A stretch of 64,000 nt of DNA from UHGV virus genome UHGV-0179428; one strand, written 5' to 3'. How positions within the stretch are numbered: position 1 is the stretch's first letter; every line of letters begins with the position of its first letter. Made by a program: the position numbers and the translations under genes. Positions 18,440 through 63,197 of this stretch are shown here, in pieces. The stretch is from a virus. Below the pieces are notes generated by a model. It was not told the origin of the DNA and did not search any database. It saw only the letters and a program-made list of their open reading frames with translations.

Positions 18440-19363
18440 ATGACAACCAATGCAGAACCAAGGTTATCGAATCGTTTATACGATAAACCCACCGTATTGT
18501 CCGTAGTCGCTACGTCCAAGTGTAACCTGGATTGTAGCTTCTGCGGTGGAGCCTATTACATGAATCGTGAAGATTCTCCGCGAGAGTTTCAACGTGAGCG
18601 AATTTTGGAAGCGCTGGAAGCTAATCCAACCATTACCGAAATTCAGTGGACGGGTGGTGAGCCATTACTGGCAACCCGTAAAATTGAGGCGTTTGTTGAC
18701 GAATTAAAAGTGATTCGTCCAGAACTCAAACACCAGTTGTATACCAATGGCTTAAAGATGCGTAAATCGCATCTCCCGTTGCTAAAACAGTTTGACAATG
18801 TCTACGTTAGCATCGATGGGTTTAAGTCGTCTGAGCGCCCGTTTATGCGCTTTATTGACGAAGGCTGTTACGAAGCACTGGAAACGATCTACGAGCTGGA
18901 TAATGTCCAGACTTGGGGTGTCCTGACACGGGACCGTTTAGGGGACAAACGCTGGCACGAAGATATTATTCAGCTGCACAGCGCGATTTACCATTACGGT
19001 TTCCGTGCAATGACGTTACTCTTAGATGCGAAAATGCCAAAACCTTTATCGCCTGACCACGTCATGAACTTTATTTACGGCTACTATCAGGTTCAGGACA
19101 ACATTGAACGGCTGAATGTAGTAAATAGTCGTGAATGCGGCTTTACGGTAAGTAAAGTGTTTGAAGAAGGGTGTAACGTTTGCAGCGAAAGTCTTTGGAT
19201 TAATGCAGACGGTGGTGAGCACCAACTCCAGAATGCACCTAACGTTCTGGAATCGGGATGTAACCAACTGGCCTTCTCTATCGGTGTAGAGGCGTACGAA
19301 TATATTCGTCGTGTGGTGATGGCAGGGCGTAATAGAGGGGCGGCAAATGAGTCAAGTAAATGA
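18440..19363 (+). CDS. radical SAM enzyme (307 aa)
   Basis: CNLDCSFCGG (CxxxCxxC) near the N-terminus, GGEPLL glycine-rich motif, VSIDGFKSSERP segment, additional C-terminal cysteines (CGF...CNVC...GC). Confidence 0.8.
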   Translation: MTTNAEPRLSNRLYDKPTVLSVVATSKCNLDCSFCGGAYYMNREDSPREFQRERILEALEANPTITEIQWTGGEPLLATRKIEAFVDELKVIRPELKHQLYTNGLKMRKSHLPLLKQFDNVYVSIDGFKSSERPFMRFIDEGCYEALETIYELDNVQTWGVLTRDRLGDKRWHEDIIQLHSAIYHYGFRAMTLLLDAKMPKPLSPDHVMNFIYGYYQVQDNIERLNVVNSRECGFTVSKVFEEGCNVCSESLWINADGGEHQLQNAPNVLESGCNQLAFSIGVEAYEYIRRVVMAGRNRGAANESSK

Positions 19364-20669
19364 ATTCCCTAAGCAGTTAACGTATCAGATCGTAACCAAC
19401 CTTTCGTGTAACCTGGACTGCGAATATTGTTACGAACGTAAGTACCCGCGTAACAACAAAGCGGCTGACATTGTTGATTTCTTACACGCCTGTTTTGAAC
19501 GTGATAAAAACGAACCGAATGTTGAAGTTATTATCGACATTATCGGTGGTGAACCGTTCATGCAGCCTAAACTGCTGTTGGCTGCGTTTGAAACCGCTGA
19601 GCAGTTGTGTAAAGAACACAACCGACCGTTTATGTTTAGTATCTCCACGAACGGAACGCTGTTAGATCGTCCGTTGAACCGTGAGATTGTAGAACGTTGG
19701 AAAGATAAACTTTCGGTTGGGGTTTCGATTGATGGCTTACCTGAATCCCATGACCGTTATCGTATCTTCACAACAACACGCCAGGGTTCTTACGAAGCCG
19801 CAGTACGTGGCTATAACTACTTAAAAGAGGTTGGCATTGCAGAGCTCGGCGTAAAAGCAACCTTTACGTTAGAAACGCTGCCGTTCTATGCTGCGGGGAT
19901 GAAGTCATTAATTGACATTACTGGCGGTGGGACAATTTCTGGAAACGTAACTTTCGAAGACGTTATGCCACGTAGCATGGCGACGTCAATCGCTTTACAG
20001 ATGATGGATGTGATAGATTACTGGGTTGAGAAAGGATTACACACCAACCCACGTAATATCCTATCGCATATCATTCCAGAAGGGTTGGATTTCGACACGA
20101 TTTGGGAACCGAACTGGCGTGACCAGTTACTGTATAATGACACCGTACGGTTGAACCCGGAACGCTTACGTCCGTTCTGTGGGACGTTAACGCACATGAC
20201 GTGCTTAGGGTTTGACCGTAAGATCTTTGGCTGTAACCGCTTTATGTCAACGGTAACGTCGCGTTCTGCGGTGTTTGAGTTGGTAGGTCGGGAATTCGTC
20301 AGTCTGGACAACGGTAAATTGTTAGAAGAGATTCAAACGCAATATACCAACTACCCAGAGACCTGTTTAGGTTGTCCGATGAAACACGCTTGTGGTAGCT
20401 GCGCAGCGGCTTCTTACGAGAACGGGGAAGGAACGTTAGAAGACCGTAAAGCGTATCACGCTGAACGACGTCAGTGTGGCTGGACGACAGCGAAACTGAT
20501 GGTGGCGGAATACTGGAAACAGAAGATGGGTACGACGTCAGCAAAAGCGTTCCACGACACGAGTATGTGTTATTGCCCACGCTGTGTTCGTGAACGTGCC
20601 CAAAAGGAAAAATTATTAAGAGAAGCCAAAGATGAAACCAATTCTGATCAACAATATTACGAAGCGTAG
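19347..20669 (+). CDS. radical SAM enzyme with SPASM-like C-terminal Cys cluster (440 aa), anSME/peptide-maturase-like
   Basis: CNLDCEYCY (CxxxCxxC), GGEPF, SIDGLPESHDRYR, C-terminal CLGCPMKHACGSC plus further cysteines; overlaps the previous gene by 17 nt. Confidence 0.8.
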   Translation: MSQVNEFPKQLTYQIVTNLSCNLDCEYCYERKYPRNNKAADIVDFLHACFERDKNEPNVEVIIDIIGGEPFMQPKLLLAAFETAEQLCKEHNRPFMFSISTNGTLLDRPLNREIVERWKDKLSVGVSIDGLPESHDRYRIFTTTRQGSYEAAVRGYNYLKEVGIAELGVKATFTLETLPFYAAGMKSLIDITGGGTISGNVTFEDVMPRSMATSIALQMMDVIDYWVEKGLHTNPRNILSHIIPEGLDFDTIWEPNWRDQLLYNDTVRLNPERLRPFCGTLTHMTCLGFDRKIFGCNRFMSTVTSRSAVFELVGREFVSLDNGKLLEEIQTQYTNYPETCLGCPMKHACGSCAAASYENGEGTLEDRKAYHAERRQCGWTTAKLMVAEYWKQKMGTTSAKAFHDTSMCYCPRCVRERAQKEKLLREAKDETNSDQQYYEA

Positions 20670-21204
20670 AATTCGACTTCTGGATAAGTTTCTGGAAAAC
20701 AGTAAGCTATTTGGTTGTTATGTGGTGATTAACGGTGAAGATTTTACCGATGACGTAAAACGCTTGCTGATTCGTCACGGTGTGACTGTAATCATCCCAA
20801 TGTACTGCACCGAACTTACTGACCTGTCGGTCGCGGAAATTGAAAAACGTAACCCAGGGTTTGAAGAACGGGTATTGGATTTCCCACGTCACAAAATTGC
20901 GTTTCTACGCCGCTCTTTAAGCGAACCCAGCGCAGAATCTATCACTGTGTTGGCATTGTCCTTCCCCGGCATTACTATCTTCGCAACACGTAACCCGAAC
21001 TCACCGATTGATGGGTTTTACGATGAGCGGGAGAAATTTAATACCGTGATTTTTCCTGAGCTAACGCCAGAAGAATGCCAGGGTATCCGTATCGATTGGG
21101 AATCGGACTTCGACACAAGATTCCGTCATATCGATTTTGAACTGTTAATCGAATTAGGGTTGATTAAAGGAGACGATGAATGTCTGCTACTGGTGAAGGC
21201 TTAA
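20632..21204 (+). CDS. hypothetical protein (190 aa)
   Basis: ORF overlapping the 3' end of the SPASM gene by 38 nt; no motif recognised. Confidence 0.6.
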   Translation: MKPILINNITKRRIRLLDKFLENSKLFGCYVVINGEDFTDDVKRLLIRHGVTVIIPMYCTELTDLSVAEIEKRNPGFEERVLDFPRHKIAFLRRSLSEPSAESITVLALSFPGITIFATRNPNSPIDGFYDEREKFNTVIFPELTPEECQGIRIDWESDFDTRFRHIDFELLIELGLIKGDDECLLLVKA

Positions 21205-21851
21205 CGAAAGAAGAAATCCGTCGCCGTTATTTTGCGCATGATTTACCGATTGACCGTCATGGTAACTACATGGAGAAAATCGGTAGCGAAGATCACGGCC
21301 GTACAGGGTTTTGTGCGTTACTGCACTATAAGCTGATTGATGGGATGTCTGATCGCGAAGCATTGGAACAAATGCGTAACTACGACATGTCTGAAATCGA
21401 AGCACGGTTTACGCTACAGAAAGCGAAAGACTTTGTTAACGACACGTTGGGAATCGACCTGGAAGAAATTCGTACAGGTTTACGTTCCACGGTGCGGTAC
21501 ATCTTTACCGATGTTCAGAAAATTCTAAGCGCTCTGGAATTCCGTTATCAGGATGCACGCTATGCTGAGATTCAGGTAGGTGATTTCACTTTCCAGGCAG
21601 ATGAGAAGTCACAGGTAGCATTGAGTCGTTATATCCAGTCAGAAACTGCGCCAGCGTATTGGTTAACGGCTAACAACACCCGTATCGAACCGTTTACGTT
21701 AGAACAGTGCAAGACGTTGCTGGCAGCAATCGTTGAGCGTGATCAAAGACTACATCACGCAATGTCTGAGCAGAAAAGAGAAGTCAGGGCTTGGGCTGAA
21801 GCACGTGATTACGATTCGATAAAAGCGTTTGCGTTAGAGCAAGGGCTGTAA
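21180..21851 (+). CDS. hypothetical protein (223 aa)
   Basis: ORF with AAAGGAG RBS; last gene of the plus-strand block. Confidence 0.7.
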   Translation: MSATGEGLTKEEIRRRYFAHDLPIDRHGNYMEKIGSEDHGRTGFCALLHYKLIDGMSDREALEQMRNYDMSEIEARFTLQKAKDFVNDTLGIDLEEIRTGLRSTVRYIFTDVQKILSALEFRYQDARYAEIQVGDFTFQADEKSQVALSRYIQSETAPAYWLTANNTRIEPFTLEQCKTLLAAIVERDQRLHHAMSEQKREVRAWAEARDYDSIKAFALEQGL

Positions 21852-21874
21852 TCGACAGCGAAAAAAAAATAGTA

Positions 21875-21915
21875 TACCTACCTCCCGTAATAGGAGGTAG
21901 GTATTTTTATTTTTC
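21875..21915. terminator. bidirectional rho-independent terminator at the strand-switch point
   Basis: Perfect hairpin TACCTACCTCC-CGTAAT-AGGAGGTAGGTA flanked by an A-run upstream and TTTTTATTTTT downstream, between convergent gene blocks. Confidence 0.75.
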
Positions 21916-21930
21916 TGTTGTTGATTTTCA

Positions 21931-22461
21931 TTAGGCTGGAGTAAAACCGTCAAGTTCACTATTTAACGTTGACATGTCCGTAACAACACGTAGCGTCAGT
22001 GTGCACAAAGACCCAGGTTGAAATTTGAGATTACCACCTTTAACGTTACAGTTATACAGGGCTGTAGATTCTGTTACTGCGCCTTTAGCGATTATAACCT
22101 CACCTACCGCAAACTCATCGTCAACCCAACCGCGTTTCTGAATCAGCTCGTTGAGAATAGCGACAATCTGATCGTTATTCTTTTCAAGTTCTTCAGCAGT
22201 GGCTACATTGTAAGTTTGTGGGCCTAAAACATTAACCCCGGGAATTCGGGTATAGTGGAATACTTTAGAGCCTGTGAAATTTGCAGATGTGGGCCGTGCG
22301 GTGAGCGTTACTTGCGCGTTGCGGGAACTACCAGGTTCTGTAGGCTGGTAGTTGGCAACGCCTTCACCAAAGTCAACATCCTCTAAAGTCAGTGGTGCTT
22401 GAAGCTGATTGTTTTTAAGGTTTATTAAATCAATCAGCTGTTGTTCAGTGCTTTTAGCCAT
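21931..22461 (-). CDS. ELDGFT-family paralog (176 aa), probable virion-associated protein
   Basis: N-terminus QQLIDLINLKNNQL...LTLEDVDFG, C-terminal ELDGFTPA; paralogous to the two ORFs upstream. Confidence 0.75.
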   Translation of the reverse strand: MAKSTEQQLIDLINLKNNQLQAPLTLEDVDFGEGVANYQPTEPGSSRNAQVTLTARPTSANFTGSKVFHYTRIPGVNVLGPQTYNVATAEELEKNNDQIVAILNELIQKRGWVDDEFAVGEVIIAKGAVTESTALYNCNVKGGNLKFQPGSLCTLTLRVVTDMSTLNSELDGFTPA

Positions 22462-22529
22462 GGTAGCGATTTCTCTATCGTGAACTAAAAGATCTGGGGG
22501 TTAACACCCCCAGACGGTTCTTTTGGGAT

Positions 22530-23060
22530 TTAGGACGTAAAGCCGTCCAGCTCACCGTTGGTGGTAGCCAGGTCAATACGTTTGTCTTCCACTTTCGGGG
22601 TAATAACAAACGTTGCCATTACACCTGGTTTATAACGGAGGTTCTTTTCAGTAACAGTACACGTTACCGTACGCAGAGTAACGTTTTCATGTTCGTCTTT
22701 CTGGTCTTCGGTAGAATAAGAAACGTCCGCTGGATGAATAGCATCGTCCGGTTTAACTTTATTGATGTAATATTGTAACCATGCGCGCAATTCGTTTTGA
22801 TCTTCCCAACGAGACAGATCGTCAGTTAGTTCAATACGACCTACAACACCCGGTTCCAGACGATCGTAATGCAGTTCGATTGCGCCTTTGAAATTCTCAG
22901 AACCTGGTAGTGCAGTCATGGTAACTTTGGTATTCTTACCTTCGCCTTCCAGCGCAGTAGGGAGACCAAAGGACACTTCTTTATCAGTAATCTGATGTGG
23001 TAGCTCAGTGTTAGCAGCATTATAAAGCGCGACCAACATCATCTGGTTAGTAGCGGCCAT
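22530..23060 (-). CDS. ELDGFT-family paralog (176 aa)
   Basis: C-terminal GELDGFTS; same architecture as neighbours. Confidence 0.75.
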   Translation of the reverse strand: MAATNQMMLVALYNAANTELPHQITDKEVSFGLPTALEGEGKNTKVTMTALPGSENFKGAIELHYDRLEPGVVGRIELTDDLSRWEDQNELRAWLQYYINKVKPDDAIHPADVSYSTEDQKDEHENVTLRTVTCTVTEKNLRYKPGVMATFVITPKVEDKRIDLATTNGELDGFTS

Positions 23061-23125
23061 TATCTTAGATCCTTAATAATACGTTTTAAAGAAATATCGG
23101 GGGAGGACACCCCCCCCCGATTCAA

Positions 23126-23668
23126 TTACTCTTTAGGACTCGGTGCAGTGAAGCCCTCGAGCTCACCATCCAGGCTGTCCAGAGCTACCTTCTGAGGAGC
23201 CGGTACACGGTACTGGTAATTTGCAATCATACCAGCCTGGAACTTGATATGACCTTCTTTTACCTGTACAGTATAGTTGAAACCGCCTTCACCTGCATCA
23301 GTTTTCTGGATTTCCAGTTCTTCTGCGATAAAGGCATCATCGACATAACCTTTAGTAATCATGTCGGCATTCAGTGCAGCTACGATAACATCGTTAGCGA
23401 CATCAGTAGTTGCATCAGTAACGGTTTTCACACCGATTAAAGATTCGGCGACCAGACGGATATAATGGAACTCTTTGCTTCCGGTAAAGTTAGCGCTTTC
23501 GTCTTTTGCAGTCAGGACAACTTTAGTATTACGGTTGTCATCTTCGCCAGAAGGACTATAAAGTTCTACAGTACCGAAATTAACATCGCCAACAGTCAGT
23601 TGGTGTTCCAGGGAACCGTTTTTGGCATTAACGGCGTCAATAAGTTGCTGTTGAAAAGCTTTAGCCAT
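23126..23668 (-). CDS. ELDGFT-family paralog (180 aa)
   Basis: N-terminus QQLIDAVNAKNGSL, C-terminal GELEGFTAP. Confidence 0.75.
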   Translation of the reverse strand: MAKAFQQQLIDAVNAKNGSLEHQLTVGDVNFGTVELYSPSGEDDNRNTKVVLTAKDESANFTGSKEFHYIRLVAESLIGVKTVTDATTDVANDVIVAALNADMITKGYVDDAFIAEELEIQKTDAGEGGFNYTVQVKEGHIKFQAGMIANYQYRVPAPQKVALDSLDGELEGFTAPSPKE

Positions 23669-23808
23669 CGTTTTTACCTCGTGTGTGGCAGGGTGGATTG
23701 CATAGTATTGTTCGGATTATAGAAGTGGTGTTAATTGTTATGACAGACGGCAGTAAGGCTTGTCTGTAAAAATATTTTTTTAAACTTTTTATAAAAAAGG
23801 TGAAAAGT

Positions 23809-24291
23809 ATGATAAAGCGTTTTCTTATCGTTTTGGTTGGTGTTTTTTCGTTGGCAGGATGTGCTTTACAACCGAATAGTAACGGTCAATTCTCGACTGT
23901 GCCGGTGGAGCCACATGACATGGTTATTTACACCTGTATGGGTGTAGAGCAAGATTTTGCGAATTACAAACCTGTCGTCAGCTCGACTAACCTCATGTTA
24001 GGGTCAGTAACCGTACTCGATACTGGTGCTAATTGGGTAGCCACTTGGCCAAACGGTAAGATTGAGTCGCCACAACTTTATAAAGACTTATTAGGTAAAG
24101 TTAATGGGAATATTGATCCTATCACTGGACAACGTTACTACCGTGTAAATGGTTTACTTTCAAAAACACCAACATTTGCGTATTCTACTTTGGAATATAA
24201 AACGGGTGATGGTAAAGGCATTACTTTCTTCCGCTGTATAGAAGGTGTAGCGCCTGACACTGGAACAATGCTCCATCCTGCGGAACAATAA
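23809..24291 (+). CDS. predicted lipoprotein (about 160 aa)
   Basis: ATG at 23809 after AAGGTG; signal peptide with lipobox LAGC (MIKRFLIVLVGVFSLAGC); only plus-strand gene inside the minus block. Confidence 0.7.
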   Translation: MIKRFLIVLVGVFSLAGCALQPNSNGQFSTVPVEPHDMVIYTCMGVEQDFANYKPVVSSTNLMLGSVTVLDTGANWVATWPNGKIESPQLYKDLLGKVNGNIDPITGQRYYRVNGLLSKTPTFAYSTLEYKTGDGKGITFFRCIEGVAPDTGTMLHPAEQ

Positions 24292-24297
24292 AAACTA

Positions 24298-24333
24298 CCC
24301 TACTCCCGATAAGGAGTAGGGTATATTCATTTT
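24298..24333. terminator. bidirectional terminator between the convergent lipoprotein and peptidase genes
   Basis: Hairpin CCCTACTCC-CGATAA-GGAGTAGGG followed by TATATTCATTTT. Confidence 0.6.
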
Positions 24334-24406
24334 AACCGCCAAATAGTGCGTAAAACGCATTCTAAGCGTCTTTATACAAAATGAGGTATAAACACCTTAG
24401 AAATAG

Positions 24407-24922
24407 TTAAATATCGACTATGGCGCTCCAATCGATTGGTTTTTGCTTAACAACTTTCACAGTACCACGATTTGGTGACCAGAAAGTAATGTTAGGCTGG
24501 TTACGAACGTCGATGTGCAACCAACTGATGTCACATTCAATAAAGTGAATGAACGGAAACTCGTCAGGGTTAGCAGCGATATAGTCGTGGACCTGTTTTA
24601 CGGTGCTATCCAACAACGTTGCATCAATGGCGTTACCGAATTTGTGTTGACTTCCTGAATCGGCGTAAAGCTGCAATGCACGTTGTTTATAACTACCACC
24701 CTTAGGCTTTTCTTGATTAATAAAGAAATCTAAGGTTCTTAGTCCGCGTTGCTGTGCGGCAGTTGAGTTAATCACCATTCTACCGAAACGGTTACGAATC
24801 TGTTGTAGGGAAATCATTAGCAACGGATTCATAAACCGAATTGCGGAATCGCCGTATTTGGCAATGTAGGACTGTGGTACTAACTCTCTGAGTTTAAAGT
24901 TACTCGGATTTGGATGAAACAT
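24407..24922 (-). CDS. peptidase M15-like (D-Ala-D-Ala carboxypeptidase fold) cell-wall hydrolase
   Basis: Motif DSGSQHKFGNAIDA matches the S.H..G.A.D zinc-peptidase signature; sits in the lysis neighbourhood. Confidence 0.5.
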   Translation of the reverse strand: MFHPNPSNFKLRELVPQSYIAKYGDSAIRFMNPLLMISLQQIRNRFGRMVINSTAAQQRGLRTLDFFINQEKPKGGSYKQRALQLYADSGSQHKFGNAIDATLLDSTVKQVHDYIAANPDEFPFIHFIECDISWLHIDVRNQPNITFWSPNRGTVKVVKQKPIDWSAIVDI

Positions 24923-25574
24923 CTTCCCTCCCAGACAGAAATGCTCGTTTGATGTTCAGGTATTTGACATTAACGGGACAATCTGTGGTGATATCAATAC
25001 GTTCGTGGTCAGGGATTGCAGGTTCCTTAAACTCGCGAACGAATAAATAGTTTCGATTGTAATCTAACGTACGAAACGCGTTAGTGTTGTAGGATGGCTT
25101 TGCATTAGGATCTACGTAGGCATCCCAGCCGAATTCAACAACGGCCTTATAAAATGTTTGGCAGATATAAGGCGAGATTTCCAACGACTGCATAATACGC
25201 AGGAACGTTAAGTCAGAAAACTCTTTGTCGATAAAACGCGAAACGTTACCACCCGGTGTCATGGGATAGCTACGCTCCGTGTTACATTTTTGATAAAGTA
25301 GGTCGTGAATGCAGGCCGCAGGTGCCCACGGTCCGTCAGGATGAAAAATTCCCTGGAGGTGTTCAGGAATTGACGCTAAATCGGTAACGAACCCTTTCGG
25401 TGCCGTTAACCACAGTTGTGTGTCAGGCAATACACCTGTTAAATAAACCGCACGGTCTAAGTGTACGTGGTCGTGATAAATTTCACGTAACGTAAACGGA
25501 TAATGGTAATCCTCCGTTAATACAAACCACTTATTGTCTAAACGTTTATATTGAAGCTTCTCCATTACCCACAC
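24900..25574 (-). CDS. DUF1353-like protein (224 aa)
   Basis: FVTDLASIP ... IHDLLYQ motifs typical of DUF1353; overlaps the downstream gene by 23 nt. Confidence 0.5.
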   Translation of the reverse strand: MWVMEKLQYKRLDNKWFVLTEDYHYPFTLREIYHDHVHLDRAVYLTGVLPDTQLWLTAPKGFVTDLASIPEHLQGIFHPDGPWAPAACIHDLLYQKCNTERSYPMTPGGNVSRFIDKEFSDLTFLRIMQSLEISPYICQTFYKAVVEFGWDAYVDPNAKPSYNTNAFRTLDYNRNYLFVREFKEPAIPDHERIDITTDCPVNVKYLNIKRAFLSGREDVSSKSE

Positions 25575-25681
25575 CTTCCCTTATAGAAACCAGAAAAATT
25601 CGTATCCACGTTTTTCGTCTTTACGTTTCCGCCCAGACGTTAACGCCTTCCACAATAACGCTAAGAGTTTAGCAAACCAGT

Positions 25682-26272
25682 TCATTTTACTAACCCCGCC
25701 TTCGCCACATAATCCGGCATTTCCCTGAACACACGTGCGTACCAACCGTAAGCGAATTTTTCATTCTTCTTACGCTTTTCGGAGATTTCTGTGTAGTAAG
25801 TTACCTGGTGTGAGATTAATGCAAAGATTAAGATGCCTAATCCTTCGTCTTTACGGTATTTCAGATAAGCATTCAGGGCACCTAGCGTTTTAGGCCCCAT
25901 CCCCCCGTCGGTGTCAATATCTGCGTAAAGCTTCCCTTCGTTATTTAAAACGTTGAGAATACGTTGTAACGATTTCACACAGTTAACGCGGCCAGAGTTA
26001 ATAGCAAAATCAAACATCCGGTCTGCGAGCAAGGGTGAGATAGCGAAAATCTCATCGAGTTTAAGTTTCTTCCACCAACCGCGATCGTAAATATCAAACG
26101 CCTGCGCACGGGTCAGATCCTTCATTCTTCCTTTATACCCGTATTCGCGTGCAGTTGTTAGTGTTACACCGTGACAGGTTTCCCCACCTTTATCGTCGGG
26201 GTCGTTCACGTACCCACCTTCTAAATCTGTTTTCGAAGCAATAATACCTTCTTTAGTCCAACGTTCGGCCAT
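25682..26272 (-). CDS. endolysin, glycoside hydrolase family 108 with C-terminal peptidoglycan-binding region
   Basis: N-terminal LEGGYVNDPDDKGGETCHGVT is the GH108 signature; strong RBS AAAGAGGAG. Confidence 0.75.
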   Translation of the reverse strand: MAERWTKEGIIASKTDLEGGYVNDPDDKGGETCHGVTLTTAREYGYKGRMKDLTRAQAFDIYDRGWWKKLKLDEIFAISPLLADRMFDFAINSGRVNCVKSLQRILNVLNNEGKLYADIDTDGGMGPKTLGALNAYLKYRKDEGLGILIFALISHQVTYYTEISEKRKKNEKFAYGWYARVFREMPDYVAKAGLVK

Positions 26273-26285
26273 TTTGTTTAACTCC

Positions 26286-26328
26286 TCTTTTACACAAAAA
26301 AAGAAAAGAGGGTGGGATTACCCCACCC
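26286..26328 (-). terminator. rho-independent terminator downstream of gene 26334-26810
   Basis: Hairpin GGGTGGG-ATTA-CCCCACCC; on the minus strand it is followed by TCTTTTCTTTTTTTG. Confidence 0.6.
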
Positions 26329-26333
26329 TGTCG

Positions 26334-26810
26334 TTATTTCTTCTTAGCGCGTGATGGCTTAGCTGGCGGTGTTTCAACAGTCGGTTTACGCGCAACACGC
26401 ACTGTAAAACCACCGACCCAGGTTAGGCACTCAGGACGGAAGAAAATGCCGTGCTCGATTGCACTGCCGTCCAGCGGTAACTCACCAACCTGCTCTACCC
26501 ATACGTCGTCTTCAGTAAGGGTTAAGCCATACTGCTCGTTAATTACAGGCAACAGGTCCGCAGTCGTGGTTGCTGTCTCAACTAACAGTTTCGGCAATAC
26601 GTTGAGGAAATACAAACCTGCATCGATACGATTATACTGGAACGTTTGCTTATTAGCATAACCGAGATTCTTAACCGCCACAACCGTAATTTCGGTGTTG
26701 TACGCACCGGTACTTACGACGGGCTCACCCAATGTAACTTTGGCGGTGTCAAGCTCAGCGTCTGGGTTAGCCTTTTTAATAAGGTCGAAGATAGTTTCTT
26801 GACTGGTCAT
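26334..26810 (-). CDS. ELDGFT-family-related protein (158 aa)
   Basis: N-terminus ETIFDLIKKANPDAELDTAKVTLGEP resembles the family N-terminus; basic C-terminal tail. Confidence 0.65.
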   Translation of the reverse strand: MTSQETIFDLIKKANPDAELDTAKVTLGEPVVSTGAYNTEITVVAVKNLGYANKQTFQYNRIDAGLYFLNVLPKLLVETATTTADLLPVINEQYGLTLTEDDVWVEQVGELPLDGSAIEHGIFFRPECLTWVGGFTVRVARKPTVETPPAKPSRAKKK

Positions 26811-26823
26811 TACTGTAATCCTC

Positions 26824-27672
26824 TTAATCTAAGAATCCCGGTAAGACCGAATTAGTTTTAGCTAATTCAATCTTCGACTTCGGACGATCGGTTCCGTTAA
26901 AGTGGATTAACAGATTACCGGTCAGGTTAGCACACAGTCCACTGAGTGCGAGTACCAGCACACGCGTGTACTTCGTATTTGCGCCTTCGTAACCTGCGGT
27001 AGGGCCATCGTACATAACCTTGGCACCGTAGAGGTTATTAGCAGCGTTTTTAGGTACGCTTACCCATTTCTCATCAACGACGTTAACCAGTTTAGTGGCT
27101 AACTCAGCCAGGTCGACAGTGTCGTTAATGGTAATCGGATCGAGGTAATCTTTTTCTGCGGTGAAGTCAATTGGATAAGAATAAACCGCTGCGTTACCTT
27201 TCTTAGTGGACGGATACTCTACCAGGTTTTCTAATTGAGTAACAGGTAACAGTTTAGCCAGATCAATAGGATCGCGTAGCGTAAGTGTCACCTCGCCACA
27301 CCATTCGTAGGATTTCTCATTAGCGGTAAACTGATGGGTTTCACCTTCAACTTTCGCATCAATGATATCCGACGGCAGGATATTTAAATCGTATTTTGCG
27401 TTGATTGCATTAAGCAAATCTGCAGCGGTTACAACACCATCGTTACCGAATACCAACTCACCTGTTAGGTATTCGGGCAAGTTACGACGATGATAAGTCA
27501 CAGTTAAAGTAGTAGACTCATCGCCTTTGAGTTTAGAAGTCAGAACCACCTGGGTATCAACCCCAGTACCAGTAGGTTCGCCGATATCAACATCACTGAA
27601 GGTCAATGGCGGAACAATATTGTTTTCAGTGTTGATGAGTTTTAGCAGTTTCTGTTTTGACGTAAGAGACAT
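26824..27672 (-). CDS. ELDGFT-family-related protein (282 aa)
   Basis: N-terminus KLLKLINTENNIVPPLTFSDVDIGEP, C-terminal SVLPGFLD. Confidence 0.7.
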   Translation of the reverse strand: MSLTSKQKLLKLINTENNIVPPLTFSDVDIGEPTGTGVDTQVVLTSKLKGDESTTLTVTYHRRNLPEYLTGELVFGNDGVVTAADLLNAINAKYDLNILPSDIIDAKVEGETHQFTANEKSYEWCGEVTLTLRDPIDLAKLLPVTQLENLVEYPSTKKGNAAVYSYPIDFTAEKDYLDPITINDTVDLAELATKLVNVVDEKWVSVPKNAANNLYGAKVMYDGPTAGYEGANTKYTRVLVLALSGLCANLTGNLLIHFNGTDRPKSKIELAKTNSVLPGFLD

Positions 27673-27839: not shown

Positions 27840-28271
27840 TTAACGAACGTTGTGTGCTAAGTACATCAGAGAACGAGTGTCGGTGTCACGAGAAGTTTGT
27901 GACATCTGGCTCAGTAACTTGTTGGCGGTAGGATCGCTATAAAGACGTTTTAACCATTCGTCAACCATTTCTGGTACAGTGTCGACCAGCAGTGGATAGT
28001 TAAGATTTTCCAGTGTGTATTCAACGAATTCGTGCATCAGATTCTGGTCACGATACATGGTGTCACCTAACTCACCTGCGGGATACTCTTCACGAGGACG
28101 TTTACCCCAGCTACAAATCTCCATATAGGCCGTGTTTACAATCTCTTTGTATTCCTCTAACTTAAGTAAATCGAAGCCAGTATTCGGGCGGCAGAAACCT
28201 ACTAAAACGCTCAGAGCAATAGGGTTGTTACGAACGTAGTTACGGATTTCATCATTTAATACGAAAAACAT
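27840..28271 (-). CDS. hypothetical protein (143 aa), paralog of 29483-29911
   Basis: Strong RBS CCTAAAGGAG; similar to the ORF at 29483-29911 (NDEIRNYVRNNP vs NSDLRDYIRKYP, shared Cys/Trp positions). Confidence 0.7.
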   Translation of the reverse strand: MFFVLNDEIRNYVRNNPIALSVLVGFCRPNTGFDLLKLEEYKEIVNTAYMEICSWGKRPREEYPAGELGDTMYRDQNLMHEFVEYTLENLNYPLLVDTVPEMVDEWLKRLYSDPTANKLLSQMSQTSRDTDTRSLMYLAHNVR

Positions 28272-28340: not shown

Positions 28341-29462
28341 TTAACGAAATTTTTGACAAGCAGGGCAATCGCAGCCTATACCAGAAGATATTTCTCTAAA
28401 GATCGCGTCGAACGAGTGCTCATTATTCTTAAGAAAACGAGCTCCCGCCAAGTCACGCAGATGAGTTTTTAACTTTCCGATAATACCGGGTTCATAGTTG
28501 AGTAGAATGGTAAGTGTATTGTCTGTGTAAGTCCACTGACGGACTTTCTCAGGAAACCAACGAGCGATATCGCGCATAAACGTATCGGCATCTTCTTTCC
28601 CAATAGTAGTGATTGTTAGAAGACGTAGACGTTTGTCAACAATCTCATTAATGAGGTTGCTAATTTCTTCGTCAAGAGCAGCGTCCCACCATTTCCATTT
28701 AATGGTGAGTTTTTCGCCCTCGAGTTTAGTCTCTACTTTGGTAGGATAGAAAGCTGTCAAGGTATCATTAATCGCTTCGGCCTCTGGGCCAGTGTAAGTA
28801 AAGGAATACGGTTCTTCGAACCATTTAATAACGTCAGGATCATTATCAACAAGCACGGTTAGCGTGCCGTCGACATAATTAGACCCACGAATTTTCTTTT
28901 TGTATTCGTGAACAGCACTACGCATGACTGCATCTGCGTCTTCTTTTCCGATATCACGAACCGAAATAAGTCGAACGGCGTCTTTGACGATCAGAGCAAC
29001 GATGATGCGAATAGCTTTCATGATCTTAGGATCGAATTCCTTCATCCTGAAAGCCAACATGTCGTATTTTTGACTAATGTATAAGGCGTCGGGATAGAGG
29101 ATATTTAATGCTTCTTTAATTTTCTCGATCGTTTCGACATCATATTGATTTACGTATGACGTGTCATCATTGCCTACAGACCACTGCTGGTCTTTGACTT
29201 TCGGTTGCTCAGCCTCGGTCGCTTTTACCTTGGCGTTCTCGGCTACCGGGTTGAGTAACTCACCGATTTCCACCGCAATAGTGTCACAAAGATAATCGTT
29301 GCAGTGAGTCCAGTAGAATACGATGCTTTCATCGTTGACCTGCTCTACACGGAAATACACACCTTTATCCAGGAATATGCGATAAAGTTGATCGAGTAAC
29401 TGTGCTTCGGGAACCGGACGGATTTCAGTTTTAACGAGCGGGGTAATTTCGATATTAAACAT
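28341..29462 (-). CDS. hypothetical protein (373 aa) with internal duplication
   Basis: Two copies of an IGKEDAD.(V/F)MR...YTD.TLT(V/I)L segment. Confidence 0.7.
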   Translation of the reverse strand: MFNIEITPLVKTEIRPVPEAQLLDQLYRIFLDKGVYFRVEQVNDESIVFYWTHCNDYLCDTIAVEIGELLNPVAENAKVKATEAEQPKVKDQQWSVGNDDTSYVNQYDVETIEKIKEALNILYPDALYISQKYDMLAFRMKEFDPKIMKAIRIIVALIVKDAVRLISVRDIGKEDADAVMRSAVHEYKKKIRGSNYVDGTLTVLVDNDPDVIKWFEEPYSFTYTGPEAEAINDTLTAFYPTKVETKLEGEKLTIKWKWWDAALDEEISNLINEIVDKRLRLLTITTIGKEDADTFMRDIARWFPEKVRQWTYTDNTLTILLNYEPGIIGKLKTHLRDLAGARFLKNNEHSFDAIFREISSGIGCDCPACQKFR

Positions 29463-29482: not shown

Positions 29483-29911
29483 TTAGCTGTAATTGTGCTT
29501 AAAGAACTCTAAAGCACGCTGGTCGTTTGTAATCGCCGTTGTGGACATTCGTTTCAACGCTTGGCGGCAGTAAGGGTCGTTCAGAATACGTTGCTGCCAA
29601 GCATTGACTATTTCCGTCACTGTTTCCCCTTCTACAGCAGTGTTAAGTTTATCGAGGCAGTGTCGCCCTAACAGAAACGCAACCGCATAATCTGTAAACA
29701 TCTCGGTGCCGAAATCCCCGTCGGGATAATCGCAACGTTTACGTACTGACGTTGCGGTAATGGAGTTATATGCGGTTTTTATTATCTCGTGAAATTGTTC
29801 CACAGTTAAGACGTTAACGTCAGTACCTGAAAGCGTAAGTGAAGCCAGTACAGGAATACTGGCTGGATACTTACGGATATAATCACGCAAATCTGAATTG
29901 AGTGTTTTCAT
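29483..29911 (-). CDS. hypothetical protein (142 aa), paralog of 27840-28271
   Basis: See paralog. Confidence 0.7.
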   Translation of the reverse strand: MKTLNSDLRDYIRKYPASIPVLASLTLSGTDVNVLTVEQFHEIIKTAYNSITATSVRKRCDYPDGDFGTEMFTDYAVAFLLGRHCLDKLNTAVEGETVTEIVNAWQQRILNDPYCRQALKRMSTTAITNDQRALEFFKHNYS

Positions 29912-35697: not shown

Positions 35698-36318
35698 TTA
35701 CTTCATTCCGTTCTGAGAAAGTGTTGTCCCTGCAAGATGTTTAATAACGATCTTAACAGGTAAATTACCATTCTCGTACTGTACTTCGGTTTCAGACAAA
35801 TCGTCGATATTGATAACTTTAGAGGGTACCTTCGCTAAAACAACACGAATGGTGTGGGTTATTGTACTGGCTGTAGTTTTTGTATTACTAACGTAGAAAT
35901 ACGCATCAATAATACTACCATCCGCTGCCAGGTAAACCAATTTATTTTCCAACAGGCACTGGCTATAAATTGACACTCCTGATAATTGCGAAACACCCAG
36001 CCTGTTGTTAACGTCAACCGTTGTTTTGCAGATTACCGCACCACCCGTCAACGTTTTTTCTACTACCATATTTCCCGATAAGGTTTTTGCATCTATTTTT
36101 GGTACTACCGGATGAGCACCATTAACAAATAACCCATCGTTATTAGACTTAAGGATGTTATTCGCCGACGGACTCACTGTAACCTCAGTACCCCCTAATT
36201 TCTCAATCGGGAGTTGGTATTCAGTTTGTTCCTTAGACGCTAAGACTACTACACCCGTGACGTCTTCTGAAAGTGTCGGCAGTTCGTGAACGCGTACCTT
36301 TCCTACCAGTTCAGTCAT
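35698..36318 (-). CDS. short fibre-like protein (206 aa) sharing its N-terminal module with the long tail fibre
   Basis: MTELVGKVRVHELPTLSEDVTGVVVLASKEQTEYQLPIEKL aligns with the fibre N-terminus MAKAVKKIRLHDLRPYTGDIGEGVLLFSKDEKDYKLPVREI. Confidence 0.7.
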   Translation of the reverse strand: MTELVGKVRVHELPTLSEDVTGVVVLASKEQTEYQLPIEKLGGTEVTVSPSANNILKSNNDGLFVNGAHPVVPKIDAKTLSGNMVVEKTLTGGAVICKTTVDVNNRLGVSQLSGVSIYSQCLLENKLVYLAADGSIIDAYFYVSNTKTTASTITHTIRVVLAKVPSKVINIDDLSETEVQYENGNLPVKIVIKHLAGTTLSQNGMK

Positions 36319-36833
36319 TGGCGACCTCCGAATGTTAAGGCACGGTTATCTGCAGTGACGATTAAATCGTTGTCTTTTACTACAGCGGCTTCTTCGTCGT
36401 TACCGAAAACCAGAACGGAGAATTGACCTTTATAACCTAACGAGTTGGGTGAAACCTGTAATGTTACAGTGTCTCTCCCTACGGTAAATGGTTCGTCGGT
36501 AAGATCTTCGGCTTGTAAATTGCAACCACAAGCCGCGTTAATTCCGTCGATTAGATCGTGTGCGGTAAAGCCATTACCGAAAACCTTTACCAGAATAGGC
36601 TGCTGGTTTAACCACCGCTCTGCGGTTAAACGGTTGTAATAGATCTGTAACGTTCTGTTGCCAGGACGTTTGATCTTTACAACAGCGGTAGTATCACGAT
36701 CCATTTCATCGCTGATCTTTACTTCGCTGATTTCAACCTCATTCTCTTGCAGATTGAGCTGAAGGTCGTGGTTGATCAGCGAAATAACCATGTTAGGTGA
36801 GGTTAGCGACAAATCTGGCACGAATTGTCCCAT
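36315..36833 (-). CDS. hypothetical protein (about 172 aa), paralog of 42865-43431
   Basis: Probable start ATG 36833 (MGQFVPDLSLTSP); conserved VPDLSL, LINHD and CG.NLQ(A/P)EDL segments shared with the paralog. Confidence 0.65.
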   Translation of the reverse strand: MGQFVPDLSLTSPNMVISLINHDLQLNLQENEVEISEVKISDEMDRDTTAVVKIKRPGNRTLQIYYNRLTAERWLNQQPILVKVFGNGFTAHDLIDGINAACGCNLQAEDLTDEPFTVGRDTVTLQVSPNSLGYKGQFSVLVFGNDEEAAVVKDNDLIVTADNRALTFGGRQ

Positions 36834-36921
36834 AAGCTTACTCTCTACGGTTGGGGGATAAAATGATTCTAGCAATATTTTATCCCCGATTATATTTTCA
36901 AGCGCATTCAGTTGAAAATAA

Positions 36922-37425
36922 TTAGCTAATTCTCAAATCACGCAGCGCGCCTGTTGATTTCATCACGTTTTGGAACGCAGCGCTGATGTTATTAGTCCAG
37001 TAATAATGCTGTCCGTTAATAACCTGCTGATAGGTCAGCGCGCAGGTGTTGCCACCTAAATTTACGGTAATGTTAGAGCCTCTGCCTCCTTGTAAGTAAA
37101 CCGCTAAAGTAGGCTTTGCGTTGGCAACTATCGTTGTTAACTGTAACTCAATACCTACTAAAGTTCCCACCCCGCAGTTACCCGCGTTTTGAATGGTTCC
37201 CTGATTTTTCTGGTTTAACGGCCAGCTTGGTCCTACTGCGCCCCATTTCTTACCTAAAGAATCGCTATATGCAGCGGTTGCAATTTTACAGCCCATAGAT
37301 CGTCCCACCATTTGACTCATCATAAAAGGTCTACCCAATCCTAATTTACTACCAGCGGCGCTCATCCATTGTTCGCCCGTTTCGTTCTTGGCCGAAGAAC
37401 CGACCCATCCAGATGCTACCCCCAT
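36922..37425 (-). CDS. gp38-like adhesin paralog (167 aa) lacking the poly-Gly region
   Basis: N-terminus MGVASGWVGSSAKNETGEQWMS parallels the T-even gp38 attachment domain; C-terminus divergent. Confidence 0.6.
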   Translation of the reverse strand: MGVASGWVGSSAKNETGEQWMSAAGSKLGLGRPFMMSQMVGRSMGCKIATAAYSDSLGKKWGAVGPSWPLNQKNQGTIQNAGNCGVGTLVGIELQLTTIVANAKPTLAVYLQGGRGSNITVNLGGNTCALTYQQVINGQHYYWTNNISAAFQNVMKSTGALRDLRIS

Positions 37426-37441
37426 CTACCCTCTTTTTTAA

Positions 37442-42666: not shown

Positions 42667-42864
42667 GATATTTAATTCTCTATCTGGAGCTAAAAGATCT
42701 GGGAAGGTAAAACACCCCCCCAACATTTTTATAAGCGGACTATTATACTGGTTTTAATCCATCATCTTCTAACGTGAAAGTGATGTCCAATTCCGCGTTC
42801 TCATGATCTGGGTTTACTAAGTCTTGATAAAAGTTTGTTTTGGCCTCCGTTACCGGTAAAACCG

Positions 42865-43431
42865 TCAAGTTCCTGTAGCCGGGCTTTCCTCAGCTGTGTC
42901 GTCATCTGGAACCTCGAATGTAAGAACGGCTTCATCATCAATACAGAAGATTGCATCTTCTTCGTTTGCCAATGCCCGTTCGGTTGTATCAAATAACGTC
43001 ACCATAAACGCATTCATCCACGCAGGAGAATCGTCAGCAACGTTAACAGCAATGGGTTCGTTACCTAAGGTGATATCTGCAGCACGTAAATCTTCGGGTT
43101 GTAAGTTCGTTCCGCAGAATTCATTTACAACACCTAAAATGTCACGAAGGTTGTCTTCAGTACCGTCTAACGAAATCAAAATAGGTTCAGACGCTAACAC
43201 TTCGTCCGCATCCAAACGGTCGTAATAAACAACCACAGAAGCACCATCAGGTTTCCTGATTTTTGTAATCTCTGTCAGTGTGTTACGACGCGATGTGGTC
43301 GGGGACGGGTTTGCCATAGTGTTGCTAATACGGATTTCGTTTAGAGACAACCGTGAACCGTTATCGTGGTTGATTAAAGCGACCACCAATTCGGCTGAGG
43401 CCAGACTTAAATCAGGTACGTAAGTAGTCAC
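42865..43431 (-). CDS. hypothetical protein (about 188 aa), paralog of 36315-36833
   Basis: Probable GTG start at 43431 after GGGAGG (VTTYVPDLSLASA); conserved blocks shared with the paralog. Confidence 0.65.
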   Translation of the reverse strand: MTTYVPDLSLASAELVVALINHDNGSRLSLNEIRISNTMANPSPTTSRRNTLTEITKIRKPDGASVVVYYDRLDADEVLASEPILISLDGTEDNLRDILGVVNEFCGTNLQPEDLRAADITLGNEPIAVNVADDSPAWMNAFMVTLFDTTERALANEEDAIFCIDDEAVLTFEVPDDDTAEESPATGT

Positions 43432-43440
43432 TAAAACCTC

Positions 43441-43491
43441 CCAGATCAAAAAAAATAAAAACACCTACCGCCCATAGAATCGGGCGGTAGG
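43441..43491 (-). terminator. rho-independent terminator downstream of gene 43518-43892
   Basis: Hairpin CCTACCGCCC-GATTCTAT-GGGCGGTAGG followed on the minus strand by TGTTTTTATTTTTTTT. Confidence 0.7.
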
Positions 43492-61790: not shown

Positions 61791-62677
61791 CAGTTAGCTG
61801 TCCCCAGGAAGAACGGTGCAGGCTGCCCGATACGAATGGTCAAAGACAATTTGTCATTCGTCTGTGCCAGGTTGGTAAACATCGAAATATAGTACAACGC
61901 CTGAACACCGATCGCCTCGTTATAGCTGAATTTAGACCCAGTTGCAGAGTCCCCGGACGCGACCTGGTCTAACCCTGAGCAGAGTGCCAGTTCAGAGATA
62001 ATTGAACTACGCGGGCTACCACGCATAATGCTCGTTACGTTCATATATTCCTGAACATCAAAGTCTGTCCACGGAATAACCAGGTCAGCACCTGACTCCA
62101 CATAACGGCCATCTGGGATTGCAACGGTACCATCGTCGTCGTAATCGTAGTCCGGCAATACTTTCGGTACGGGGTTTAATTCCGTGTCTGTGTACACAAA
62201 GTCTTCGACGGTCTCAACACCGTTCTCACGCCTGATATCGTAATCGGTGGTTTTTACAGCGCGCATGTCGATGCGTTTTAAATAATACGCCCAGTATTCG
62301 CGTTTGTTAAACGTTTCCAAAGTACGAAAAGCGTAGTTCTTACGTTGTTCGTCAGACAGATCATTGTCTTTTGTACGCAGGACAAACGGAACGCGGGAAA
62401 ACATCCCGGAAGCAATAGGTTCTTTACCTACAGGCACAACGTCAGCCACCACATCAGAGGTGTCGACCATATGGCCACGGTTACCAATTGCCATGTACTG
62501 CAAATGAGGACGCGCTTTACCGTCCGGCACTGGTGTTTGCATGAGTTTATAGAACTCATTCAGTGTGGATTTTTGCGGGTATTGCACGTCAGCACCGGTA
62601 ATTAATGCGGTAGCCAAACGCATCGCATTAAGCGTTACCGTCGAGAGTTTACCGTCGTAAACTTTGACATTAGACAT
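61790..62677 (-). CDS. hypothetical protein (295 aa)
   Basis: Long ORF. Confidence 0.65.
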   Translation of the reverse strand: MSNVKVYDGKLSTVTLNAMRLATALITGADVQYPQKSTLNEFYKLMQTPVPDGKARPHLQYMAIGNRGHMVDTSDVVADVVPVGKEPIASGMFSRVPFVLRTKDNDLSDEQRKNYAFRTLETFNKREYWAYYLKRIDMRAVKTTDYDIRRENGVETVEDFVYTDTELNPVPKVLPDYDYDDDGTVAIPDGRYVESGADLVIPWTDFDVQEYMNVTSIMRGSPRSSIISELALCSGLDQVASGDSATGSKFSYNEAIGVQALYYISMFTNLAQTNDKLSLTIRIGQPAPFFLGTAN

Positions 62678-63197
62678 TGATTAATTCTCCTGGGCGGAAC
62701 CCATCCAACGCCAATTTCGTCACAAGAGACGCCAATTTGCGTGGGGTGGAATCAGTAAATACGACCGGAATCGTTCCTTTAAAAGACAAATGATTCGGGA
62801 CGAGACGAACATCATAAGAATCCAGCTCCTCTGAAATCGGCTCAATCATAATGTCGTCGGCACGCAGGTCAATCCCTGTTTGCGCAACGATATAATCAGC
62901 CAACTCCTCGCTGGACGTTACTGCGCCTTTCGGTACACTCACCGGTTCATCGGCCAGGAACGTTGCCAAATCAACGCGAGTTAAAATGAATTCCTGGTTT
63001 CCGACAACGCCGTTACGGAAGACGGCAGCAACCTTTGATTCTAGTCCGTAACGTTGACGTTCTGCTAAAGTTAGTGGTTGAACGCCGTTTGCGTTAAACT
63101 CGATGTTATCAGCAGTATAGGATAGACTAAATACGTAGTTAATCCGGTCTACTAAAATTTGTTTAGGTGCTTTCGTTAAATCGACACGATATGCCAT
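62670..63197 (-). CDS. hypothetical protein (175 aa), ELDGFT-family-like C-terminus
   Basis: C-terminal LALDGFRPGEL. Confidence 0.6.
   Translation of the reverse strand: MAYRVDLTKAPKQILVDRINYVFSLSYTADNIEFNANGVQPLTLAERQRYGLESKVAAVFRNGVVGNQEFILTRVDLATFLADEPVSVPKGAVTSSEELADYIVAQTGIDLRADDIMIEPISEELDSYDVRLVPNHLSFKGTIPVVFTDSTPRKLASLVTKLALDGFRPGELINV

Follow-up and report, generated by a model that had tools for sequence, protein, structure and literature searches.

The 64,000-nucleotide (nt) stretch of the virus genome UHGV-0179428 analysed here, hereafter designated as the window, carries eight open reading frames (ORFs) that are near certainly paralogues of DUF7941 (Pfam PF25613), a protein family specific to chimalliviruses and known in phage SPN3US as paralog family B. 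These members, named copies a to h, are found in four places (Table 1). As this family is already catalogued, the window supplies new members and not a new kind of system; what is new is the identification, from sequence patterns, of the L-[D/E/P]-G-F tail of several copies as the linker that follows each DUF7941 module. As a whole, the observations are best explained, and with good probability, by DUF7941 paralogues that would form mixed filaments docked through their linkers, with the tail of a baseplate wedge protein as a possible attachment point. Judging from its genes, the window belongs to an uncultured phiKZ-like jumbo phage related to SPN3US. No close DNA match was found among GenBank phages, and IMG/VR contigs of 221-225 kilobases (kb) carry genes 98-100% identical to those of the window; a protein 100% identical to copy c is encoded on a 223-kb contig annotated as an uncultured Caudoviricetes metagenome-assembled genome (MAG).

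An earlier note on this DNA had described at least five ORFs between positions 21931 and 27672 as an expanded paralogous family, with a conserved N-terminal L-I-x-L-I-N block and a C-terminal ELDGFT-like motif said to recur at 62670-63197 and from 63205 onward. Based on the gathering score of the Pfam DUF7941 profile (27 bits), all five ORFs of the span (copies a to e) and the ORF at 62670-63197 (copy h) belong to the family. These six hold, but two members, copies f and g, had been missed; both exceed the same cut-off and were recovered by a profile built from the six (36315-36875, E 3.5e-10; 42865-43464, E 2.5e-9). The motif does recur at both distant sites, but the ORF at 63205 shares the tail motif only and is no paralogue. 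The N-terminal block, with the consensus phi-phi-x-x-phi-N (e.g. QQLIDLIN), is seen in every member, and the residues R62 and D102 (numbered as in copy e) are invariant. In PHROGs, the family is distributed over three related groups, namely phrog_4862 for the tandem copies a to c (176-180 amino acids, aa), phrog_1037 for copies e and d (282 and 158 aa), and phrog_2935 for copy h (175 aa). The span itself is broken up by unrelated genes at 23800-24291, 24407-24922, 24900-25574 (a DUF1353 protein) and 25682-26272 (a GH108/PG_binding_3 endolysin), the other two products being an endolysin-like 171-aa protein and a plus-strand 163-aa protein.

Two checks proposed in the same note, a wide profile search and a structure prediction, were run, and both detected the expected relationship. 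Searches of 1.84 billion cluster representatives with an eight-member profile gave 2421 matches at E<=1e-3 and 647 at E<=1e-10. In BFVD, 62 matches were obtained at E<=1e-3 and, among the 50 listed, all named ones were jumbo-phage proteins, labelled mostly as virion structural, tail or tail-fibre proteins. These matches and the neighbouring genes both place the window among the phiKZ-like (chimallivirus) jumbo phages to which DUF7941 is restricted, and an iterated hidden Markov model (HMM) gathers the SPN3US members together with those of the window. The AlphaFold2 (AF2) model of copy c is confident (mean predicted local distance difference test, pLDDT, 92.8), with a helix at residues 5-16 that corresponds to the L-I-x-L-I-N block, four strands, a helix at 92-105 and three strands; this module has the fold of the N-terminal domain of phiKZ gp127. 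The tail scores 89 at residues 161-170 and 72 at 171-180. The copy e model, built from a shallow 12-row alignment, has a mean pLDDT of 53, with only the N-terminal module confident and the linker and C-terminal domain below 50, values too low for it to be used as a guide to the position of the two linker motifs of this copy. A phmmer search nevertheless matched copy e to PDB 9xqd_0 (PHIKZ127; E 1.5e-6). No Pfam family besides DUF7941 was found above cut-off in the eight members (weak matches to Spiralin, Ribosomal_L9_C and BPD_transp_2 fell below their own cut-offs and were rejected), and none has the fibre, lectin or enzymatic domain of a generic tail fibre or receptor-binding protein. Some pairs are invisible to BLASTP (e.g. 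22530 versus 62670, E 3.5), as they would be if the similarity were due to chance or composition and there were no family at all. Yet all eight pass a curated Pfam threshold, the six-member profile finds the other two at E 1e-9 to 1e-10 and the fold matches gp127, so that this explanation retains next to no probability and is counted as already refuted.

The shared architecture claimed for the five ORFs stood for the family module, present in all, but not for the C-terminal motif, which is missing from copy d (26334-26810), where a basic tail ...PPAKPSRAKKK is found instead. Copy e alone covers the full architecture of the DUF7941 profile (module, linker and C-terminal globular domain); the other seven span approximately profile positions 3-170, i.e. 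module and linker as in Goslar gp23. The picture of conserved ends around a variable middle applies, roughly, to the three tandem copies a to c, whose mean pairwise identity starts at 0.31-0.57 in the first ~90 columns of the alignment, is mostly 0.14-0.33 in the central and second-half blocks, with single blocks up to 0.33-0.36, and reaches 0.50 in the final block.

The distribution of the motif identifies it as part of this architecture. L[DEP]GF occurs in the last 20 residues of 7 of the 79 non-overlapping window ORFs, versus 0.04 expected (maximum 2 in 2000 shuffles). A segment of the same shape follows the module in full-length members, including IDLAKLLPVTQLENLVEYP in copy e, ELDGLKF in Goslar gp34 and DLDGLAYP in 2050HW gp048; the short forms end at this segment, and copy e has a second one after its C-terminal domain. 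Among 148 top-listed representatives of the 2421 profile matches, 65 are natural concatemers of up to about a dozen tandem modules, and [LIVM]xG[FLYW] was present at 23 of 55 module-module junctions. Of 61 single-module proteins, 39 have it within 25 residues of their C-terminus, where chance, by a rough per-position estimate, would give near 6%. This position at both protein ends and module junctions indicates that the motif is the post-module linker of the family, and the covalent concatemers provide Rosetta-stone-type support for a head-to-tail arrangement of modules. The proteins are also polar: among 27 representatives extended at the C-terminus by at least 150 aa, 26 begin directly with the module, and the motif closes just 2 of these. 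Six of eight large members scanned gave Pfam matches in the extension (ConA-like lectin, BNR/sialidase-like, immunoglobulin (Ig), SPRY and propeller domains). In the window, no read-through fusion of adjacent genes was found, the genes being out of frame.

Combining these patterns with work published by others on Goslar, we infer that head-to-tail polymerisation is a likely mechanism of assembly. Each protein has a ~150-residue alpha/beta module, starting with the L-I-x-L-I-N helix and followed by a short linker with an L-[D/E/P]-G-F core. The linker of one subunit would dock on the module of the next, as proposed for Goslar gp22 and gp23, and flexible filaments associated with the virion would thereby grow from mixed paralogues. 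Host-recognition ends would be supplied by variants that have C-terminal binding domains or are encoded next to fibre genes, and copy d, which has no motif, is a candidate chain terminator. In Goslar, AlphaFold3 (AF3) predicts head-to-tail dimers with the linker on the next N-terminal domain, and purified gp22 forms filaments in negative stain (bioRxiv 10.64898/2026.04.21.720040, hereafter the Goslar preprint).

The ORF at 63205 onward, rejected above as a paralogue, carries the same motif on a baseplate protein. It has no DUF7941 match (63205-63843), and instead matches phrog_3222 (positions 510-710/711, E 8e-56), PDB 9xqs_C (PHIKZ128; E 1.4e-9) and the Goslar chain 11lx_Bh (E 1.2e-5), with 68-77% identity to SPN3US-group proteins of 727-729 aa, SPN3US gp82 being 727 aa in length. 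Its product thus resembles phiKZ gp128, a baseplate wedge protein (PMC13250141). A split or truncated gene (63205-63843) was rejected because no stop interrupts the frame up to base 63999; the window ends within the gene, and the N-terminal ~460 residues of the product fall outside it. Copy h lies between this gene and that of a spoke protein related to phiKZ gp139 and Goslar gp32, which joins the inner and outer baseplate. Searches with the wedge fragment gave just two near-identical fragments, and IMG/VR loci found via the spoke protein were used instead. The gene order is kept in 17 related SPN3US-group loci (L008-L024), and a wedge gene followed by a DUF7941 gene is also found in SPN3US, ChrisDB, EarlPhillipIV, 2050HW, Goslar and phiKZ.

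Across the 17 loci, similar terminal peptides are found on the wedge protein and on its 175-aa DUF7941 neighbour, and the two change together. In ChrisDB, the wedge ends in LADRVKKYALDGFRPDEFF and the DUF7941 protein in LAELVTLRSLDGFNIGEFF, and the corresponding tails of the EarlPhillipIV/CR5 clade are LVDRVLIRDNGPYTAP and LVERVLITDVGAYPTA. BLOSUM62 scores of tail pairs range from 26 to 69 within most of the LDGF clade and from 32 to 57 within the D-x-G-x-Y clade, versus 12-28 between clades; shuffled tails give a mean of 14.5 (standard deviation 3.5; 99.9th percentile 30). The DNA encoding the two tails differs at synonymous sites, which favours selection on the peptide and makes recent gene conversion unlikely. 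More elaborate ends were found in Serratia phage 2050HW, whose wedge (gp047, L007) has eight end repeats spaced by ~21 residues, half of them L-x-G-L-W and half L-x-G-F, including an ENLGGF identical to the end of 2050HW gp049, and in Goslar, whose wedge (gp35, L002) carries LDGLW, LRGLT and LQGLW in three to four tandem ~21-residue repeats at residues ~700-760, resembling Goslar's own linkers. Neither phage has such motifs in the first ~700 residues of the wedge, and all of them fall within the last 100-150. Tails that switch together across clades suggest a shared docking peptide, and we infer from these sequence comparisons that the wedge and copy h tails would have a common binding partner, most simply a DUF7941 module. 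That the wedge tail is the attachment point of a DUF7941 chain is put forward only tentatively. Neither the Goslar preprint nor the phiKZ atlas (PMC13250141) mentions the tail motif on the wedge protein.

Another terminal motif was noted at 54601-54972 (minus strand), which encodes a 123-aa homologue of SPN3US gp97, a low-abundance 'head' protein, ending ...KAVLEGF. The terminal phi-x-G-F follows a helix-like segment and is kept in SPN3US (VVAGF) and Huxley (VINGF). This protein was considered as a head-side anchor, for which there is no clade allowing a co-variation test.

A number of observations weigh against linker-docked filaments anchored on the wedge. Filaments have been demonstrated for Goslar gp22 only, in a preprint. 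The motif is not universal, being absent from phiKZ gp126, gp127, gp128 and gp143. For the wedge and copy h tails of the window, which have only the motif core in common, the score of 19 lies inside the null distribution, and two LPGF lineages (L019, L023) remain at null level (17-19). In one locus (L016; IMGVR_UViG_3300011862_000001, 1815-3932), the wedge stops ~20 residues early and has no tail; no frameshifted remnant of an L-D-G-F tail was found there, and the adjacent 173-aa DUF7941 protein keeps its own. Finally, the copy c tail is confidently placed in a monomer model (pLDDT 89 at residues 161-170), and could thus be a cis element. Most of these points would equally suit the view that L-x-G-F packs on its own module or acts as a domain spacer, as in the covalent concatemers, where it is an ordinary inter-domain linker, the wedge motif then being a convergence on a short and easily evolved sequence. 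This view is nonetheless unlikely, given that wedge and DUF7941 tails switch jointly from LDGF to D-x-G-x-Y in the Derbicusvirus/CR5 clade, that scores above the 99.9th percentile of the null are reached in several lineages whose two tails are not identical in DNA, that the 8 and 3-4 tandem copies of the 2050HW and Goslar wedges occupy terminal extensions only, and that the AF3 predictions reported for Goslar and phiKZ put the linker on the module of the next protomer.

The gene order wedge, DUF7941, spoke also lends itself to another proposal, in which the wedge and copy h tails bind dimers of the gp139-like spoke protein (DUF7208) and cap equivalent ends of a spoke filament. The phiKZ gp139 band does run from the wedge gp128 to the DUF7941 protein gp127, and Goslar gp32 dimers are two-fold symmetric and stacked end to end, so that both filament ends would expose the same surface. 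This proposal appears quite improbable: abundant gp160-like copies bear the motif yet are encoded away from the spoke gene, the motif of concatemers lies between DUF7941 modules, SPN3US gp83 stays with tailless particles from which the spoke gp84 is lost, and phiKZ gp127 and gp128 have no motif.

The earlier note had also suggested that such families often mark diversifying virion components or host-interaction proteins, and virion association is borne out by work on related phages. The ~20 proteins of SPN3US family B were found in purified virions by mass spectrometry, with gp141 and gp160 abundant (PMC5694885; PMC10052503 Table S2), and gp22 and gp23 rank with the most abundant proteins of the Goslar particle, at an estimated ~580 and ~2140 copies per virion (Goslar preprint). 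Where they are located is disputed. In phiKZ, the N-terminal domain of gp127 was modelled in the outer peripheral baseplate, beside the outermost gp139 dimer at the end of the gp139 band (PMC13250141), and the Goslar preprint proposes a baseplate-anchored "fibre cloud" for host recognition. Tailless SPN3US particles, obtained with the tail-tube amber mutant 255(am107) and two caesium chloride (CsCl) gradients, give a different picture (PMC10052503 Table S2): wedge gp82 and spoke gp84 drop to 0.018 and 0.056 of wild type, and 19 family B proteins (gp83, gp138-154 and gp160) are kept at 1.1-1.7x the normalised counts of wild type and were assigned by the authors to the head. Only gp237, which drops to 0.06, and probably gp122, which goes from 22 counts to none, behave as tail proteins. 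Such retention further argues against an anchorage solely at the baseplate; head or neck attachment, or filaments entangled with heads, are possible explanations.

The same retention, the identical head assignment from an independent tailless mutant (PMC5694885) and the lack of DUF7941 density in the baseplate maps of the Goslar preprint, where the SPN3US data are not cited or discussed, are all expected if the family is mainly head- or neck-associated, as capsid-surface fibres or another head component, and if its baseplate gene neighbourhood is uninformative. We regard this location as somewhat unlikely. The gp127 N-terminal domain was modelled in the phiKZ outer baseplate, where a gp126-gp127 dimer fits unexplained density; no DUF7941 protein appears among the modelled Goslar virion components, capsid included, gp22 and gp23 being listed as unmodelled; gp237 and probably gp122 act as tail proteins; and filaments, free or entangled, might have been purified along with the heads, the preprint noting co-purification of other large assemblies.

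Within the preferred reading of linker-docked filaments, L-x-G-F may be a portable docking tag giving a polar logic of initiator, extender and terminator, an idea that the sequence patterns suggest and that we hold with reserve. Initiators would carry the tag only, as the gp128-like wedge with one copy here, 3-4 in Goslar and eight in 2050HW. Extenders would combine module and tag (copies a, b, c, h and e). Terminators would have a module without the tag, as copy d, the differently tailed copies f and g, and large relatives with lectin or sialidase-like cargo. Swaps or additions of extender alleles, as for copies a and c, would then re-tune a combinatorial filament coat and leave the baseplate core untouched. 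This logic is described neither in the Goslar preprint nor in the phiKZ atlas (PMC13250141).

One of the closest known systems is SPN3US paralog family B, which comprises gp83, gp138-154, gp160, gp237 and possibly gp122 and has been described as potentially the largest group of paralogues of any phage (PMC5105663, PMC5694885). By synteny, gp83, which is encoded between wedge gp82 and spoke gp84, is matched by copy h; a single gp160 beside DUF4376 and radical S-adenosylmethionine (SAM) genes by copies a to c; an array of ~18 genes upstream of the endolysin by copies d and e; and gp122, upstream of fibre genes, by copy g. The tail motif is shared as well, gp160 and three members of ~470 aa ending NGELDGF or NGELNGF. 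The two phages differ in copy number, with one gp160-like gene versus three here and ~18 array genes versus two, and SPN3US full-length members have no counterpart of the extra C-terminal tail of copy e. Copies a and e are just 40-44% identical to their SPN3US relatives (39.7% by tblastn between copy a and gp160 at 138251-138760; 44% between copy e and SPN3US-group array proteins), versus 83% for the spoke protein (83-85% to the SPN3US and phiEaH2 proteins). The SPN3US array (121.5-131.7 kb; L001/L003) was seen to contain three tandem gene triplets, each starting with one of the ~470-aa proteins with N-terminal DUF7941 and the NGELDGF/NGELNGF end, followed by proteins of ~332 and ~300 aa undetected by the DUF7941 profile.

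Goslar has ten named DUF7941 proteins, versus eight in the 64-kb window. Its gp23 consists of module and linker, like copies a, b, c and h, and ends ...NVADGFVKP..., a variant of the same tail motif, which is not described in the preprint; gp22 consists of module, linker and C-terminal domain, like copy e. Sequence identity is low and Goslar linkers are mostly L-x-G-L-x-[FY], not L-D-G-F. The window has three tandem gp23-like copies, each with its own hairpin. phiKZ has just three members (gp127, gp126 and gp143; PDB 9xqd; PMC13250141), none with L-x-G-F, and its gp128 tail has no motif either.

Outside phages, chaperone-usher pili would offer a functional analogy if the filament model is right, since they are chains of paralogous subunits in which each lends a short terminal peptide to the one that follows, with an anchor at the base as starting point and an adhesin-bearing tip subunit as the end. 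These pili polymerise by donor-strand exchange, where the peptide comes from the N-terminus and serves to complete an Ig fold. There is no homology between the two systems, and cytoplasmic assembly without an usher would apply here.

That the family is diversifying is supported by a comparison of orthologous slots in five relatives whose flanking genes are mostly 93-100% identical to those of the window. This comparison replaced the ratio of non-synonymous to synonymous substitutions (dN/dS) proposed for the paralogues, because at 30-42% identity synonymous sites would be saturated. Copies b (90-98%), e (91-96%) and d (88-96%) are conserved across close relatives, and copy c ranges from 52 to 97% identity. 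No orthologue of copy a was found in the five relatives (best match 34-42%); a pattern scan of IMG/VR gave none, and GenBank phages showed at most 40% identity. In the nearest relative, copy b directly adjoins the DUF4376 gene. Direct reading of the intergenic sequences shows a strong terminator-like hairpin of its own after each of copies a, b and c; a consensus scan gave 15 terminator-like sites in 6.1 kb versus 5.2 +/- 2.5 in shuffles. Together with the hairpin after copy d, this suggests that each copy may be transcribed separately.

The variable slot, set among otherwise near-identical phages, extends over 20632-23668 (loci L031-L036) and also includes a 190-aa ORF (47-99% identical) and a DUF4376 protein (58-100%); in one relative (L033) the third copy is a different one, and none of the relatives compared has copy a. 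SPN3US has two radical SAM genes in synteny with the one just upstream of the slot (19347-20669, plus strand), whose 440-aa product includes a 4Fe-4S cluster domain. Beyond copy e, a second, unrelated paralogue pair of 143 and 142 aa (27840-28271 and 29483-29911; 33% identity, E 4e-30) flanks a 373-aa ORF (28341-29462) with an internal repeat ...IGKEDAD...; one of these three has a PHROG match, to a family of no known function.

Table 1. DUF7941 copies, baseplate genes and terminator-like hairpins of the window
Feature	Position (nt)	Strand	Profile or structure match	Tail and remarks	Motif (nt)
DUF7941 copy a, 176 aa, SPN3US gp160-like short form	21931..22461	-	PF25613 41.6 bits; phrog_4862 E 9e-39	...NSELDGFTPA; one module and linker tail	21943-21954
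DUF7941 copy b, 176 aa, short form	22530..23060	-	PF25613 39.6 bits; phrog_4862 E 9e-35	...TNGELDGFTS	22539-22550
DUF7941 copy c, 180 aa, short form	23126..23668	-	PF25613 41.7 bits	...LDGELEGFTAPSPKE	23150-23161
DUF7941 copy d, 158 aa, module only	26334..26810	-	PF25613 105.3 bits, profile positions 7-155/276		
DUF7941 copy e, 282 aa, full-length form	26824..27672	-	PF25613 179.1 bits, profile positions 5-275/276	N-terminal module, internal linker ...IDLAKLLPVTQLENLVEYP, C-terminal domain, extra tail ...IELAKTNSVLPGFLD	26833-26844 (tail)
DUF7941 copy f, 172 aa, adjoins tail-fibre cluster	36315..36833	-	PF25613 65.8 bits; phrog_2935 E 8e-25	second tail type ...DNDLIVTADNRALTFGGRQ; likely start ATG at 36833 (MGQFVPDLSL)	
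DUF7941 copy g, 188 aa, SPN3US gp122-like	42865..43431	-	PF25613 68.1 bits; phrog_2935 E 1e-25	second tail type ...EDAIFCIDDEAVLTFEVPDDD...; upstream of 1500-aa tail fibre gene	
DUF7941 copy h, 175 aa, SPN3US gp83-like	62670..63197	-	PF25613 50.5 bits; phrog_2935 E 2.5e-48	...LVTKLALDGFRPGELINV; between wedge and spoke genes	62697-62708
phiKZ gp128-like baseplate wedge protein, C-terminal 264 codons	63205..64000	-		...KINDLEGFTLDQLPK; cut by window end	63229-63240
Spoke protein, phiKZ gp139/Goslar gp32-like (DUF7208), 295 aa	61790..62677	-	PF23838 334.5 bits; PDB 9xpg_A (PHIKZ139) E 1.2e-33	directly downstream of copy h	
Terminator-like hairpin after copy a	21874-21904	-			
Terminator-like hairpin after copy b	22492-22515	-			
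Terminator-like hairpin after copy c	23096-23121	-			
Terminator-like hairpin after copy d	26309-26329				

A role of the DUF7941 copies in host interaction, as the earlier note had proposed, may be considered. A possible link is provided by copies f and g, which flank the tail-fibre cluster, and by the large relatives that carry lectin, sialidase-like and Ig domains. The cluster (36315-43431) contains a 1500-aa fibre gene (38224-42726), whose product resembles T4 gp37 at its distal end, and a pair of adhesin genes of the gp38 type (37442-38224 and 36922-37425). A paper on Erwinia jumbo phages (PMC6690015) offered no relevant information on fibre morphology. The likely start of copy g is the GTG at 43431, after a GGGAGG ribosome-binding site and a terminator-like hairpin. 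Copies f and g have a tail of their own type, with two short D-[DN]-x-phi-phi-x-[TL] repeats and the end ...LTF, a type shared with SPN3US gp122 and with many metagenomic members.

Few unexplained components of chimallivirus virions are as abundant as the DUF7941 proteins, with ~2500 copies per virion in Goslar and ~20 paralogues in SPN3US, and their role, like their location, is disputed. The window adds a lineage with a different copy-number layout, together with new results on three points: the tail is the linker of the family, it recurs and co-varies on the wedge protein, and the copies turn over slot by slot. These provide three testable handles, namely a linker or tail peptide that is defined, its co-varying occurrence on the wedge, and a slot at which alleles and copy numbers turn over among near-identical phages. 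Should the tag logic fail, what remains is a correctly spotted but already catalogued paralogue family. If true, this logic of tags and modules would explain both the assembly and the diversification of the filament coat, and would suggest a way to re-target or strip this coat in therapy-candidate phages against Salmonella, E. coli or Erwinia.

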